Positions 12,040 through 24,766 of a DNA stretch of 64,000 nucleotides are shown piece by piece (position 1 is the stretch's first letter; each line of letters begins with the position of its first letter). The notes under the pieces are model-generated. The model was not told the origin of the DNA. It saw only the letters and a list, made by a program, of their open reading frames with translations, and did no database searches. This DNA is from Candidatus Poribacteria bacterium (GTDB taxonomy: Bacteria > Poribacteria > WGA-4E > PCPOR2b). The stretch spans positions 2,560,001 to 2,624,000 of the forward strand of contig OZ242351.1 of the NCBI GenBank assembly GCA_965208675.1. The letters run 5' to 3'. Both the position numbers and the translations under genes were made by a program.

Positions 12040-12126
12040 GAATGAAGTCCTATCATCCATTTAGGCATTGGACATTAGTTTTAATCTTTATGATGTAGTT
12101 TATGTCAACAATACTTGAGGAAAAAT

Positions 12127-12546
12127 ATGACCTTGCAAGTTCAAGAGGTTCAAAACAGCCCCAGCACCCCGCGTTTCATCATAGCAGCCAAGACGGACGA
12201 AATTAGACCGGGTAGCTGTATTGACGCAAAGCTAGAAGGGCATTGCATTGGTATCCACAATGTCGATGGACAGTATTACGCGGTCGACAATATTTGTCCC
12301 CATGTTGGCGGAGTTTTACACTCAGGTCAGTTAATGGACGGGGTTATCGTCTGTCCAATTCATCAATGGAAGTTTGATGTCAAGACGGGCGCGTGCATCT
12401 GGCCGGGGAAATGCGAGATTGCGACCTATCCCGTGAAGGTTGACGGCGACCACATTTTTGTTGATATCAATTCACCGAGCCGCCCAATCCAACATAACCC
12501 CATTCGAGTTTATCATACGAAGGCAAAACGGAGGGCAAAGCCGTGA
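12127..12546 (+). CDS. Rieske [2Fe-2S] ferredoxin (NirD-like)
   Basis: CPH...CPIHQWKFDVKTG. Confidence 0.85.
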   Translation: MTLQVQEVQNSPSTPRFIIAAKTDEIRPGSCIDAKLEGHCIGIHNVDGQYYAVDNICPHVGGVLHSGQLMDGVIVCPIHQWKFDVKTGACIWPGKCEIATYPVKVDGDHIFVDINSPSRPIQHNPIRVYHTKAKRRAKP

Positions 12547-12899
12547 TAACTGTCGCGAATCGAATTTACGTTGCGCCTGAATTTAGAGAAGACTTCGAGG
12601 CGCGTTTCCGAAATCGCGCACGCCTTGTCGACGGCATGCCCGGGTTCATATCAAATCAGGTGTTGCGGCCGGTAAATGACGATGACCCTTACGTGGTTTT
12701 TACACTTTGGGCATCACGCAAAGACTTTGAAAACTGGGTGGAATCGGATGAATTCCGGAAGGGGCATGCCCAATCCGGAACATTGCCCAAAGAGGCGTTC
12801 ACGCAATCGAACAAGTTAGAACTTCACGAGGTATTTCTCGATTCTTCTCGTCCGGACCTTGTGGAAGAGCCGCACGGCGGCGCATTCAGCGTACATTAG
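12543..12899 (+). CDS. ABM-domain heme-degrading monooxygenase (IsdG/HmoA-like)
   Basis: VANRI...FEARF..R...GMPGF...W..S..F..H. Confidence 0.8.
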   Translation: MITVANRIYVAPEFREDFEARFRNRARLVDGMPGFISNQVLRPVNDDDPYVVFTLWASRKDFENWVESDEFRKGHAQSGTLPKEAFTQSNKLELHEVFLDSSRPDLVEEPHGGAFSVH

Positions 12900-13067: not shown

Positions 13068-13082
13068 ATAAATGTGAAAAAA

Positions 13083-13242
13083 ACAGAAAGGGCCAACAAC
13101 AGGGAAAGGGACAGCACGCAACGGTCAATTGTTAGCTAGCTCCCGTATCCCCGTTGATTAGATGAATTGGGGCTTTTTTGCGCCCAATCGGGGCGAACGT
13201 TAGCAAATCAACAATTTCCCAAACGCGCCCCGCCCTTTCTGT
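13083..13242 (-). ncRNA. Candidate structured ncRNA, copy A (~160 nt)
   Basis: Terminal stem ACAGAAAGGGC/GCCCTTTCTGT; covarying inner stem; 22-nt block identical to copy B; G-U pairs favour the minus strand; U-tract at the 3' end. Confidence 0.7.
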
Positions 13243-13249
13243 ACAAATA

Positions 13250-13279
13250 AGAGTAAGCCAATCGCTTAACAAATGTCAA
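13250..13279 (-). promoter_or_regulatory. Minus-strand sigma70-like promoter for ncRNA copy A
   Basis: TTGACA-18-TACTCT, 7 nt before the stem start; same arrangement in copy B. Confidence 0.65.
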
Positions 13280-13343
13280 GAAAATAGTACGTCGTCGGTC
13301 AATGACGACGACATTAATAACCATTATCAGGTTGAGGATTTAT

Positions 13344-13598
13344 ATGATGAAACTAACCCCTATCCAATTTAGCATCTTGTTGTTGGTAATGGTGGCTGCA
13401 ACCGGTCTGGTGTTGTCTGGTTGTGAGAGCGACCCTTTGCTTGAACCGCAGTCTCAAGTCCCTGAAGAGACCGGCAGCTACGGCAATACGAATCTCCCGG
13501 TCAGTGGAACCGACAACTCGAACAATGCGGTCAACGCCGGTCAGAATAAAGATATTGACGGCAACCGCTACAGGAAAACCAATCCAGAACTCTTTTGA
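13344..13598 (+). CDS. Small lipoprotein, unknown function
   Basis: GAGGA RBS, hydrophobic leader, lipobox LSGC. Confidence 0.7.
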   Translation: MMKLTPIQFSILLLVMVAATGLVLSGCESDPLLEPQSQVPEETGSYGNTNLPVSGTDNSNNAVNAGQNKDIDGNRYRKTNPELF

Positions 13599-20431: not shown

Positions 20432-20800
20432 ATGAGTTATAGTGCAGATTTAAGGAAACGAGTTGTCAGTTATGTTAAAGCTGGCGGCAGCAAAATCGAA
20501 GCCGCTCGCCGATTCGATATCAGTCGAAGGACGGTGTACAATTGGTTAGCGTCAGTCAACCTGCCGCCTAAACCGCGGGCGCCGCACGCCCGTAAATTTG
20601 ACATTGGCGCTTTACGGCGTCACGTAAAGGATTATCCTGATGCCATACTCTCAGAACGCGCTCAACAGTTCGGCGTATCCATAAGTACGATATGGTATCA
20701 TTTGAATCAGATGAATTTATGCAGGCGAAACCATCAGCATATCAATAAAAACATCACTGCAACCGAGACAAGTCTTGCCGTGAATACCGTAACCGATTAG
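20432..20800 (+). pseudogene. IS630-family transposase N-terminal HTH fragment (no DDE part)
   Basis: MSYSADLRKRVV...EAARRF.ISRRTVYNW...PDAILSERA. Confidence 0.75.
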
Positions 20801-20949
20801 ATTTAAAGCCAGGGGAGATGCCATCCATGTTCGTGCGTGGAAATTTGACTCAACTACTTAACGAAGTGCGGCACGACGCCATCATAAGACAACGAGGCAT
20901 CGCATTGGGAGAAACTGACGCCGCCGCATGGTACATTTTTAAAAATGGC

Positions 20950-20970
20950 TGATACTGAGACTCATTTGCA
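20950..20970. promoter_or_regulatory. Fur-like operator 4
   Basis: TGATACTGAGACTCATTTGCA. Confidence 0.7.
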
Positions 20971-20987
20971 TAAATCAGACCTAATAT

Positions 20988-21107
20988 AACAGAAAAGGCG
21001 AACGATAGATATAGGGAAGAACTCGCAACGTCCAATTGTTAGCCGCATTCCCTATCCCTATCGGATTCATAAATTGGGGCTTTTTTGCGCCCACCGCCCT
21101 TTCTGTT
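20988..21107 (-). ncRNA. Candidate structured ncRNA, copy B (~120 nt)
   Basis: Terminal stem AACAGAAAAGGCG/CGCCCTTTCTGTT; inner stem CGATAGATATAGGGAA/TTCCCTATCCCTATCG; conserved loops shared with copy A. Confidence 0.7.
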
Positions 21108-21113
21108 CCCATT

Positions 21114-21143
21114 AGGATAAGCCAGTCGCTTTGAGATTGTCAA
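21114..21143 (-). promoter_or_regulatory. Minus-strand sigma70-like promoter for ncRNA copy B
   Basis: TTGACA-18-TATCCT, 6-7 nt before the stem start. Confidence 0.65.
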
Positions 21144-21170: not shown

Positions 21171-23117
21171 ATGACGTTGCACACCCAAATTTTGATGGGG
21201 GTTTTCGCCATCTTCGCCATTGGGGAAATAACTTTAAAGACAGGCCCCAAATCTGCCTATGCCTTCGATTCAACTGAGTTAACCAATGACATTTTTAAGA
21301 TGGACGAGATTGTCATCACCGGTACAAAAACCGAGCGTCAATTGAAAAATACACCTATTATCACCGAGATTATCACGCGCAGCGAAATCGAAGCAACAGG
21401 TGCAGAGAACATCGGAGAGGCGTTAGAGCATCGAGTGGGTGTCGTTGTCAATCGTGACGCCCACGGCGACGGAGTTCAACTGCAAGGGCTAGATTCGGAT
21501 TACATCCTAATTCTGGTCGACGGCGAACCGCAGGTTGGGCGAATCGCCGGCAAACTGGATCTTGCGCGTATGACAGTCGAAAATGTTGAACGGATCGAGA
21601 TTGTCAAAGGCGCATCGTCTGCGCTCTTCGGCAGCGCCGCGATGGGGGGCGTAATCAACGTTATCACGCGAAAAATATCATCGCCGTTTACTGCTCAATT
21701 CACCAACAACTTCGGGAACCACAACACCATTGACAGCCGTAGCACGGTTGGGTTGAATCGCGGCAAGTTCAACGGGTTAATGACGGTTACTGCAAACCGC
21801 CGAAACCCAATCGACCTGGACAAGTCAGACCTTACGACAACGATTGACGGCTATCAAAACTGGACCCACTCGGCGCGAACTGAGTATCAACTGACCCCAA
21901 AATCAACCCTCCTGTTTTCGGGGCAATATTTTGCCCAAAATCAGGACGGTGTCAGCGAAAGAGAGGGCGCCGTTTTTGACCGGCTCGGCGACATTGACAA
22001 CTTCAGCGGCAGCGTCGGCACGGAATATCAAGTCGGATCCCGCTCAAAGTTGATGGGCAAAATTTACGGCACGCGGTACCGCGATGAATCCACGGTTATC
22101 GACCGCGGCGCATCGCTCACCGCGTCATCAAATGTCACAATTCAAGACCTAATCAAGGGCGAAGTGCAATATGACGCCGCTCTCGGTTCAAAAAATCAAC
22201 TGACCGTTGGCGCAGAACTGATATTTGAAAATCTCGAATCGAAACGCATCACGGGCGGCGAAAAGGACATCACAACCGACTCGCTGTTTTTCCAAAACGA
22301 ATTTCGACCAATGGCAAAACTGTCGATTGTCTTGGGCGGACGGTTTGACAATCACTCCGAATTTGGAACACATTTCAGTCCAAAGTTGAGCGGGATGTAT
22401 CACGTGACACCTAATCTAACGATGCGTACCTCCTTCGGTGAAGGTTTTCGCGCCCCTGACTTCAAAGACCTATATCTCGATTTCAGCAATGTGACATCCG
22501 GGTATCAGGTGCTTGGAAATCCGGACTTACAACCGGAGTCGTCGGGCAACTGGAATCTTGGAGTTGAATACCTATTCAAGTCCTCAATTCGCGGACGGGC
22601 GCACCTGTATCGAAACAACCTAAACAACCTTATTGAAGCGGAACGGATCGGGACAAGCGTGCTTGGTGGGAGTAAGTTTCAGTATTTTAATGTCAGCGAG
22701 GCATTCACTGAAGGGCTTGAAGTCGAATTCTCGACCCGCTCAATTAGGGGATGTGCCGCCTCAATCGGCTATGCATATCTCAACGGCGAGGACAAGGAGA
22801 CCGGTATGGCGCTGCTGAACCGATCAAAGCATAGCGGTAACCTCAAGCTCGTTTACATGAACCCGGACGCCGGTGTCAACCTTGACCTGCGCGGGCGTTA
22901 CGCCAGTAAGTGGGGTTTTTACGACGACGGTGACAAGGTACTTGAAGATGAGGAGTATGCGCCAAGCAACTGGATATGGAACATTCGGGCGTCGAAGCAG
23001 GTCATCAAATGGTTAAAAGCCTCGTTCGGAATCAACAACATCTTCGACTTCAAAATTCCGACCTTTTATCCCTTTTCCGGGCGGTCATTTTACGGCGGTT
23101 TGTCGCTAAATTACTGA
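21171..23117 (+). CDS. TonB-dependent receptor, probably heme (HmuR-like)
   Basis: TonB box DEIVITGT, VERIEIVKG..S.LFGS.AMGGVIN, GFRAP, GNPDLQPE; adjacent to HmuY. Confidence 0.9.
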   Translation: MTLHTQILMGVFAIFAIGEITLKTGPKSAYAFDSTELTNDIFKMDEIVITGTKTERQLKNTPIITEIITRSEIEATGAENIGEALEHRVGVVVNRDAHGDGVQLQGLDSDYILILVDGEPQVGRIAGKLDLARMTVENVERIEIVKGASSALFGSAAMGGVINVITRKISSPFTAQFTNNFGNHNTIDSRSTVGLNRGKFNGLMTVTANRRNPIDLDKSDLTTTIDGYQNWTHSARTEYQLTPKSTLLFSGQYFAQNQDGVSEREGAVFDRLGDIDNFSGSVGTEYQVGSRSKLMGKIYGTRYRDESTVIDRGASLTASSNVTIQDLIKGEVQYDAALGSKNQLTVGAELIFENLESKRITGGEKDITTDSLFFQNEFRPMAKLSIVLGGRFDNHSEFGTHFSPKLSGMYHVTPNLTMRTSFGEGFRAPDFKDLYLDFSNVTSGYQVLGNPDLQPESSGNWNLGVEYLFKSSIRGRAHLYRNNLNNLIEAERIGTSVLGGSKFQYFNVSEAFTEGLEVEFSTRSIRGCAASIGYAYLNGEDKETGMALLNRSKHSGNLKLVYMNPDAGVNLDLRGRYASKWGFYDDGDKVLEDEEYAPSNWIWNIRASKQVIKWLKASFGINNIFDFKIPTFYPFSGRSFYGGLSLNY

Positions 23118-23365: not shown

Positions 23366-23995
23366 ATGAAGAAGATTAGGTTTCTCTTAACACCGATATT
23401 CATCTGCACAATAATTTTCGGCGTGGTACCGGCTGATGCGAAAGTTCACAGCGCAACCGTCACCATTGACGCCACGAGCCGCGAGGCGTGGACATTTTTC
23501 AGCTTCTCAACAGGTAAGCCGGTCGAAGTTGAACACCATTCATCCTCAATAAATTGGGACCTCGGTTTCCAAAGGACAATGGTGATTGTCAACGGTGGTG
23601 CCAGCGGTCCCGGTGAAGGCACCGTCCTAATATTAGAAGGTGTTCAATTTGAAGATGTTGTCGCTGCGCCGGAAGGCGTCTACGTACCGGATACCGACCA
23701 GATTGCCACGATTGCACGGGGAGACGGTTGGTACACCTACACCGGTCCCCCAAATCACTTGGTTCTGCCCAACGATCGGGTCTACGTGCTGCAAACCGCA
23801 GCCGGGCTGTTCGCAAAGTTGCGCTTTATCGGCTATTACAGCGACAACGAAGCCAAGGAAGGCTCTGGTAATATCACCATCGAGTATGCCTTCCAAGACG
23901 ACGGCAGCCGCAGTTTCCAGACGTCTGCTCAAACCTCAGTCGAAGCGAAAGCGAAACTCGTAACGACATGGGCGCGGCTTAAGTTCGGTAGTTGA
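23366..23995 (+). CDS. hmuY: HmuY-family heme-binding protein with C-terminal VEAKAKLVTTWARLK tag
   Basis: TIDATSREAW.FFSF, WDLGFQR, NGG.SGPG.G, GWY.Y, AKLRF..YY. Confidence 0.8.
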   Translation: MKKIRFLLTPIFICTIIFGVVPADAKVHSATVTIDATSREAWTFFSFSTGKPVEVEHHSSSINWDLGFQRTMVIVNGGASGPGEGTVLILEGVQFEDVVAAPEGVYVPDTDQIATIARGDGWYTYTGPPNHLVLPNDRVYVLQTAAGLFAKLRFIGYYSDNEAKEGSGNITIEYAFQDDGSRSFQTSAQTSVEAKAKLVTTWARLKFGS

Positions 23996-24265
23996 TTCGC
24001 CGACAGATGAACCTTATATGCTTGCTCGCCGCCAATTTGCTGCCGCGGCGAGCAAGATTAGCGAACTTTACTCTATTTAATGTTGTACTCGTAAGGTCTA
24101 CCAATTGCCAACCCAAGACTCCCAAGCTAGTTTGGGTTGTGGACGAGCGTGAAGCTTGTATTGGCAAGTCATGCGTAACGTCAAGGAAATTATTCCCTAC
24201 CATTACGCATTACGCTTTACTCATTATTCACTACACAGCAATCAATTTTGCCAAGAGAATAAAAG

Positions 24266-24766
24266 ATGACTTTCAGCATATCTCGCCTCATTGGAATAAC
24301 CGGTTTCGGTGCGATTGCACTCACCGGTACTTTGATTGCGCTCACGCCTTTATTGCAGCAGTCATGCTGGTTAATCTATTCGCGTTCACTTCTGCTCGCA
24401 AACGGTGCGTTTGCATGCGCGTGCGCCGCATCGGCATTCTACCTCATCCAAGAACGCCAACTCAAACGTAAGCGGTTTCTCACGGCATTTAAACACCTGC
24501 CGGCGCTTGAGCGGTTGGACACGCTTTGTCATCAAGGCGTGATTATCGGGCTGTCGCTATCGATTCTTGGACTGTTCGCTGTTTTAAGATGGCACGCCAG
24601 TTATCACAACGACTGGTCGCACCAAGTGTCCGGCGTGAGTGGTGTGTGTCTGCTCTATCTGTTTCACCTGTTTATTCGCTTCGTTCTACGTCGGCGCGGA
24701 AAAACGCTTGCGTATTTTTCAATCACTTGCATTTCAATTCTGCTGCTTTTACACCTATCTTCCTAA
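24266..24766 (+). CDS. Short CcsA/HemX/YpjD-like cytochrome c assembly membrane protein
   Basis: FYLIQERQLKRK...LPALERLD motif, several TM helices. Confidence 0.6.
   Translation: MTFSISRLIGITGFGAIALTGTLIALTPLLQQSCWLIYSRSLLLANGAFACACAASAFYLIQERQLKRKRFLTAFKHLPALERLDTLCHQGVIIGLSLSILGLFAVLRWHASYHNDWSHQVSGVSGVCLLYLFHLFIRFVLRRRGKTLAYFSITCISILLLLHLSS

Follow-up and report, generated by a model that had tools for sequence, protein, structure and literature searches.

The TonB-dependent receptor gene at 21171..23117 (plus strand; identified by Pfam) in this Candidatus Poribacteria genome is preceded by a short non-coding gap, and the question raised by the locus is whether this gap encodes an RNA and, if so, from which strand it is read and what it might do for the receptor gene beside it. 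Within the window (the whole 64,000-nucleotide stretch that was analysed) every long reading frame from 9 kb to 29 kb is on the plus strand. The initial annotation had placed in the gap a minimal second copy of a structured RNA, which we refer to as copy B, on the minus strand and with its own promoter, ahead of a heme-uptake operon.

A covariance model of the RNA, described below, matches copy B on the minus strand at 20986..21110 (117.4 bits, E = 7.3e-26), and the predicted transcript would run from about 21107 to about 20980. Both the letters and a promoter scan point to the -35 hexamer TTGACA at 21138..21143 (minus strand, read 21143-21138) and, 18 nt after it, the -10 hexamer TATCCT at 21114..21119 (minus strand, read 21119-21114); the scan picks this same TTGACA-18-TATCCT site with 10 of 12 matches. 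Seven bases separate the -10 from P1, a 12-bp closing stem in which the 5' strand ACAGAAAGGGCG (21095..21106, minus) pairs with the 3' strand CGCCUUUUCUGU (20989..21000, minus). Enclosed by P1 are the P2 hairpin, GGGC-GCAAAAAA-GCCC (21077..21092, minus), which constitutes the variable domain and is larger and branched in other families, and P3, a long interrupted stem (21003..21063, minus; helices 3 to 5 of the pair analysis). The sequence CCAAUU follows P2, and the 13-nt linker to P3 starts with CAAUU. In the alignments the apical part of P3 (21020..21047, minus) carries a nearly invariant loop with the family consensus CUAACAAUUGGCNGUUGGGAGC; in copy B this part (21047-21020) holds AACAAUUGG, including the loop AAUUGG. 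P1 is followed by an A/U-rich 3' tail (20972..20988, minus), presumed from a comparison of U content to be the 3'-end region.

The promoter, closing stem, hairpin, CCAAUU and long stem of the initial annotation were all found in place on the minus strand. Its view of copy B as a small version also held, but the model match is 125 nt long and not 120 nt, and the apical stem GCGGC/GUUGC that it reported, while present in copy B, is peculiar to it, the family using AGCU/AGCU together with CAAU/GUUG.

A search of the complete 4.89-Mb genome with a covariance model, which the initial annotation had proposed, returned two copies and no third. Copy A, at 13080..13246 (minus strand, 115.6 bits), has the same orientation as copy B, and by alignment contains an extra hairpin of about 40 nt between P1 and P2 (roughly 13190-13230, minus). 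Its promoter (13250..13279, minus), read from the letters, consists of TTGACA at 13279-13274, 18 nt, and TACTCT at 13255-13250; this -10 is weaker, and the simple promoter scan misses the site. The two copies are similar over the window segments 13082-13186 (74.5% identity) and 13224-13282 (76.3%), and they have exact common stretches of 22, 13 and 11 nt. Just upstream of the copy A -35 is a 9-bp G+C-rich hairpin followed on the minus strand by a T-rich run (window 13289-13314), a near-identical form of which is found in the same-genus relative L033; it would either keep minus-strand transcription from running on into the RNA gene or form a hairpin in the leader on the plus strand.

Relatives of the element were first found by blastn, in 25 of 101 related genomes, and 27 of the sequences obtained in this way were used to build the covariance model (R1). 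The model matches 76 of 151 genomes of the same order, with one or two copies per genome, distributed as 21 of 28 genomes in family f1, 45 of 104 in f2, 8 of 11 in f3 and 1 of 7 in f4; it has no match in 11 genomes from five other families of the phylum. Forward matches score 31-148 bits, as compared with about 22 bits for reverse-strand matches. A scan for the loop pattern over one genome per prokaryotic species gave 57 loci, 56 of which are records of Candidatus or uncultured Poribacteria, and when 18 of the 57 were re-scored with the model 17 proved to be full-length matches. The lone Acidobacteriota locus was rejected as a chance match, since it lies inside a permease frame and aligns to only 23 model positions (18.9 bits), as was a lone metagenome locus, where the loop alone matches and the hit is partial (15.3 bits). 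Among the genomes searched, the RNA family is confined to one order of Candidatus Poribacteria.

Rfam 15 gave no match at gathering thresholds anywhere in the window. At E values up to 10 for both copies, and up to 1 for four homologous loci, it gave only unrelated families far below threshold, such as S4-Clostridia (16.5 bits, with 37.5 needed) and Plastid-rpoB (22.7 bits, with 45 needed). A literature search on regulatory RNAs of Poribacteria (riboswitch, sRNA and related terms) found nothing relevant. Judged from comparison of the genomes, the element is confidently predicted to be a genuine poribacterial gene for a small structured RNA that had not been catalogued before.

Two groups of loci stand somewhat apart. 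One genus has a shorter subtype of about 141 nt (L075, L087, L089, L092, L099, L101 and L105, at about 1501-1644 in each), which follows the 3' end of a TonB receptor gene and stands back-to-back with a gene of about 170 aa whose product has a PSCyt1-type cytochrome domain; by eye, P1 is followed on the RNA strand by a hairpin and a U-run, and a simple terminator scan made no call on this hairpin in L089. The secondary copies L036, L037, L038 and L016 lie after unrelated genes (GHMP kinase, UDP-glucose dehydrogenase) and have a degenerate or altered -35, and P1 of L038 contains a run of A-C mismatches that would be G-U on the opposite strand. These secondary copies may be decaying duplicates.

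Given a family of this breadth, it was possible to ask whether the fold is under selection. Pairing was counted in an alignment (A4) of 82 distinct sequences that had been fitted to the structure of the model, which favours that structure. In this alignment 92.0% of cells are paired, as compared with a mean of 84.0% after shuffling and 45-58% in controls with slid partners, and changes on both sides that keep the pair occur in 19 of 34 pairs (shuffled mean 13.3). Not one shuffle out of 500 attains even a single one of the five measures used, a count that is not to be read as a probability because the 82 sequences are mutually related. In P1, 95.6% of cells are paired, with G-U at two positions (21 and 39 of the 82 sequences); in P2 each of the four pairs has two-sided changes in some members of the family; and in P3 the pair 192/249 is AU in 36 sequences, CG in 31 and UA in 11, and the pair 191/250 is GC in 49 and AU in 28. 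P1 and P3 form the conserved core, and the domain between them varies from one hairpin in copy B to two or three in copy A and in f2. The apical loop of P3 is almost invariant in the alignments while the stems covary. Compensatory changes therefore appear to keep the helices of the predicted RNA; the initial annotation had named a lack of covariation as what would count against it, and covariation is what was found.

The genes around the element were examined next to one another across the family. In 73 loci the RNA is flanked by two genes, each in the orientation opposite to its own. On the promoter side, where the neighbours are divergent, the 37 tested comprise 17 TonB receptors, 14 PepSY_TM-like proteins, 2 PSCyt1 proteins, 1 ABC ATPase and 3 proteins with no family, and the PepSY_TM-like genes each precede a receptor gene where the locus reaches far enough. 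The initial annotation had equally named a missing link to iron genes as evidence against it, and 31 of the 37 divergent neighbours are of the receptor or PepSY_TM-like kind. On the 3' side, the 14 convergent neighbours tested comprise 7 ABM proteins, 6 TonB-receptor C-termini and 1 WD40 protein. A frame of exactly 118 aa was counted manually on this side in 39 of the 73 loci, and all ten of the convergent proteins of about this length that were tested by Pfam are ABM proteins, so that the 3'-side partner of the RNA is usually a predicted heme-oxygenase-like ABM gene.

Both copies in the window have such surroundings. The copy B receptor, whose start codon is 27 nt beyond the -35 of the RNA, is the first gene of a cluster that also encodes two HmuY proteins, a periplasmic binding protein, a FecCD permease and an ABC ATPase, and has NCBIfam similarity to heme, siderophore and B12 receptors, in each case below the curated cut-off. 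Between the two HmuY genes are frames that overlap in different phases (window 23992-24471 and 24266-24766, plus strand), the second with a weak Cytochrom_C_asm match; they may represent a frameshifted or miscalled gene for a heme-handling membrane protein. Copy A is convergent with a 118-aa ABM-domain gene (12543..12899, plus; Pfam ABM, E = 9.7e-23), the product of which has the heme-degrading HmuQ as its best NCBIfam model (59.3 bits, below the cut-off of 130), and this gene is preceded by a Rieske ferredoxin gene (12115-12546, plus); across the family, such a Rieske and ABM pair is what usually lies upstream of the RNA. In the other direction copy A precedes a small lipoprotein-like frame and then a second receptor. 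This frame of about 84 aa (window 13344-13598, plus), between the copy A promoter and the CarboxypepD_reg-type receptor, has a lipoprotein-like signal with a Cys after the hydrophobic stretch and matches no Pfam or NCBIfam family; a similar N-terminus is found at the same place in the related locus L018. The receptor frame itself is listed from 13423, and its true start is probably later. The receptors beside the two copies are 27% identical over 134 residues, which agrees with the earlier assertion that the flanking genes are not close homologues and that it is the non-coding cassette that is conserved.

Beside copy B is an N-terminal fragment of an IS630-family transposase (window 20432-20800, plus; HTH_Tnp_IS630, E = 7.6e-27), which occupies the place of the Rieske and ABM genes of other genomes and suggests that an insertion or rearrangement split the copy B module from those genes. 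Beyond the 3' end of the RNA is a palindrome (20947..20974) that we take to resemble a Fur operator. In f1 and f3 it is conserved at this place, between the RNA 3' end and the ABM gene, and in f2 it is absent there. Copy B has retained the RNA and the palindrome despite the replacement of its upstream genes by the IS630-type fragment, and in four relatives that have the ABM gene and no same-strand receptor gene after it the RNA is absent (best score 9.4 bits with filters off). From these two observations it follows that the RNA travels with the receptor or PepSY gene.

The transposase fragment raises the question of whether the element is an RNA gene at all, as opposed to a DNA-level feature (an operator array, a recombination site or the remnant of a mobile element) or a small protein gene. 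We consider this very improbable. The fragment adjoins copy B and the loop holds short palindromes, as a DNA-level feature might, but a genome that has the element has just one or two copies of it, the gene context is always the same, and compensatory changes preserve its helices. The prospect of a small protein arises from a 42-codon open frame in copy B (window 20988-21113, minus), the ATG of which overlaps the end of the -10 region. This frame was rejected as a chance occurrence: the homologues lack both the ATG and the frame, and indels of one base and of variable length break any reading frame through the element.

While the helices pointed to an RNA, a single copy could not tell us from which strand it is read. 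The 131-nt minus-strand stretch of copy B folds with -50.5 kcal/mol (z = -4.77; none of 200 shuffles as stable), and the plus strand is also well folded, at -45.0 kcal/mol (z = -5.31), so that the strand is unresolvable from one sequence. A quite different interpretation was accordingly considered, in which the functional RNA is a leader or intercistronic element of the receptor mRNA, riboswitch-like and on the plus strand, the minus-strand features being incidental. The good plus-strand fold of copy B would be expected of such an element, as would its position, always directly upstream of a receptor or PepSY gene in the same DNA segment, and in f1 and f3 the Fur-operator-like palindrome lies just upstream of it in the plus direction. 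Across the family, however, the two strands part company. For 27 sequences aligned with MAFFT, RNAalifold gave a consensus of -36.57 kcal/mol with 34 pairs in the minus orientation and of half that stability, -17.4 kcal/mol with 24 pairs, in the plus orientation. Among the paired cells of the 82 sequences there are 251 G-U or U-G as compared with 71 A-C or C-A, the latter mostly at helix ends, in an alignment (A4) that was fitted to a model built on the same strand; read on the plus strand the 251 G-U cells would become A-C mismatches, and a minus-strand RNA is therefore favoured. Nor does the element match any Rfam riboswitch. Covarying helices and an invariant loop are present, but on the strand opposite the receptor, and we regard the plus-strand leader as improbable.

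The sequences flanking the fold bear on the same point. Exact TTGACA is found in 72 of the 82 distinct homologues, 38-40 nt from the start of P1, and each of these 72 loci has TANNNT at a distance of 17 nt (8 loci) or 18 nt (64 loci), with a spacer that varies freely; the remaining 10 sequences have a near-match -35 or are degenerate secondary copies. Hexamers at fixed spacing around a free spacer are the signature of a promoter and not of an RNA element, which again speaks against the plus-strand leader, and a sigma-70-type promoter of its own is predicted to drive the putative RNA. At the other end, a U content of 60% or more is seen in the 15 nt that follow P1 in 37 of the 82 sequences on the RNA strand and in none on the opposite strand; a terminator scan found no canonical intrinsic terminator after copy B. 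Four independent results agree that the predicted RNA is read from the strand opposite the TonB-receptor genes. The minus strand and the own promoter of the initial annotation are thus borne out across families by the fold, the G-U count and the conserved hexamers. Its placement of the RNA ahead of a heme-uptake operon is right as to position, but the RNA points away from the receptor gene and would be antisense to its transcript.

How could an RNA so placed affect the receptor gene? The start codon of the receptor or next gene is about 20-30 nt beyond the -35 of the RNA, and the RNA promoter and the ribosome-binding site of that gene stand back-to-back. In f2 the gap between the ABM stop codon and the RNA 3' end measures 4-10 nt, and the next start is about 20 nt beyond the -35, distances so short that the RNA gene and its promoter fill the whole intercistronic gap. 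Given that about 20-30 nt separate the -35 from the receptor ATG, there is no room for a receptor promoter, and the receptor transcript would therefore have to cross the RNA gene. It is the geometry, and nothing else, that points to this overlap. A sense-strand promoter near the palindrome is seen as a marginal match (9 of 12 positions) in 8 of the 27 f1 and f3 loci and in none of 55 loci of other families.

The best explanation of these data, which we hold with modest confidence, is that the element is a minus-strand RNA gene of about 125 nt with its own promoter that exerts cis-antisense control over expression of the receptor. The structure, strand, promoter, synteny and taxonomic range of the RNA are results of computation, to which this explanation would add that the RNA is transcribed, where it begins and ends, that it pairs with the sense RNA and in which direction it acts, all of which we infer. 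A search of sequencing runs for a 10-kb segment spanning both copies listed five, none of them recorded as RNA. The receptor transcript would start no nearer to the receptor than the far end of the RNA gene, and the receptor mRNA would carry the full complement of the RNA, as a leader in f1 and f3 and as an intercistronic spacer in f2. The RNA would be made constitutively from its near-consensus promoter and would pair with the sense segment, probably first via the exposed conserved loop. Through duplex cleavage or premature termination, pairing together with head-on transcription might then reduce the expression of the receptor genes downstream or uncouple it, and the strong transcription of the operon under iron starvation would override the RNA. 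It counts against the cis-antisense explanation that the RNA does not overlap the ribosome-binding site of the receptor gene.

The fold is a further difficulty. Complementarity in cis is automatic, so that the constraint on the fold and the loop is left unaccounted for, and this keeps a role in trans or in binding alive. A conserved fold and an invariant loop are not needed for cis-antisense action and hint at a further partner. It is thus conceivable, if somewhat doubtful, that the RNA acts in trans or binds a partner, that its position at iron loci reflects co-inheritance or co-regulation, and that the fold presents the loop as a seed for mRNAs or as a dock for a protein or ligand, for example an iron- or heme-related signal. 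The near invariance of the loop across families in which the stems covary is what such a role predicts and what pairing in cis does not require, and with stretches of 22, 13 and 11 nt that are identical in copies A and B each could reach the locus of the other. On the other hand, the strict back-to-back placement with receptor or PepSY genes would be unnecessary for action in trans, and the RNA is absent where the receptor gene is missing; no candidate partner protein was identified, and the own genome has no site complementary to the loop over more than 13 nt. Complementary sites of 11 nt number 83 in this genome, as compared with about 42 expected, a count that is uninformative.

Pairing of the loop within the RNA itself bears on the same alternative, given that in several clades the loop has a possible pairing partner in the variable domain, which suggests a compact or switching fold. 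The initial annotation had proposed a pseudoknot between CCAAUU and AAUUGG. The 6-bp complement is present in copy B, but no pair of it changes on both sides; in f1 and f3, 81.1% of its cells pair, and the sixth pair is formed in 4 of 27 sequences. An alternative pairing of CCCAAU with GUUGGG is formed in 95.0% of cells, likewise with no two-sided changes, and in both cases such changes are lacking because the loop never varies. In one f2 clade of 26 sequences the loop can pair with 10 nt of the variable domain (95.4% of 260 cells), five pairs changing on one side only in a wobble-compatible manner; these 10 nt are also part of a local hairpin, with 95.1% of cells paired and 2 compensatory pairs. 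The longest complementarity of variable domains to the loop is little above that of shuffled domains, averaging 7.1 as compared with 6.3 when G-U is allowed, and 4.59 as compared with 4.57 for Watson-Crick pairs only. Long-range or alternative pairing of the loop is a possibility of some interest.

Taken further, these observations allow the RNA to be seen as a sensor, in which the loop and the variable-domain segment, with its choice between local pairing and pairing with the loop, would form a switch. A ligand or protein related to iron or heme would read this switch, and its state would gate engagement of the receptor transcript. We think this unlikely; were it true, TonB-dependent uptake would be regulated by an antisense RNA that is both structured and responsive to a signal, a combination that is not known to have been described.

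No genetic system exists for Poribacteria, which are uncultured and live as sponge symbionts and marine bacteria, and the RNA family offers a first handle on the control of their iron and heme uptake, a trait central to life within a host. It also carries a caution for the automated annotation of motifs, in that what appears to be the 5' leader of a receptor gene is, on comparative evidence, a separate gene on the opposite strand. What is new is a lineage-restricted RNA family, whereas antisense and small regulatory RNAs are a kind already known in iron regulons. Should the cis-antisense explanation prove correct, the principle of RNA-alpha, RNA-beta and IsrR would extend to a distant phylum, with an unusually constrained fold.

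The closest parallels in arrangement are RNA-alpha and RNA-beta of pJM1 in Vibrio anguillarum. RNA-alpha is described, in the account consulted, as repressing the iron-transport genes fatA and fatB under iron-rich conditions (PMC5524678), and for RNA-beta the account describes termination inside the fatDCBA-angRT operon, which leads to unequal expression of the upstream and downstream genes (PMC8383071). The likeness is that of an antisense RNA within an iron-uptake operon that contains a TonB-dependent receptor gene (fatA), and a poribacterial RNA between an upstream gene and a receptor gene would fit the same logic, its function here being predicted. There is no relation in sequence or structure between them. 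RNA-alpha and RNA-beta overlap coding regions and are specific to the plasmid; the poribacterial RNA, in contrast, occupies non-coding sequence between genes, its fold of three domains covaries, its loop is invariant, and it is conserved order-wide.

IsrR of cyanobacteria is described as a constitutive cis-antisense RNA to the isiA mRNA, which is under Fur control; the two are degraded together, and induction thereby acquires a threshold (PMC8635728). The f1 and f3 poribacterial loci are similar in that a palindrome resembling a Fur operator lies on the sense side of the RNA gene; they differ in that IsrR is inside the isiA coding region whereas the poribacterial overlap would be with a leader or intercistronic region, and the f2 loci differ further in having no palindrome at the same place. 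GadY of Escherichia coli is a small RNA opposite the intergenic region of an operon, and its pairing directs processing of the polycistronic mRNA. It serves the acid response and not iron, and its likeness to the poribacterial RNA is in the opposite-strand intergenic site, with no relation in sequence.

The Fur-repressed, trans-acting RNAs RyhB, PrrF and IsaR1 resemble the poribacterial RNA in being small RNAs tied to iron homeostasis that have their own promoters, and no Rfam family of this kind matches it. In these systems a Fur operator overlaps the promoter of the small RNA, which spares iron by repressing the mRNAs of iron proteins. In Poribacteria, by contrast, the palindrome is not over the promoter, lying beyond the 3' end of the RNA in f1 and f3 and being absent in f2.
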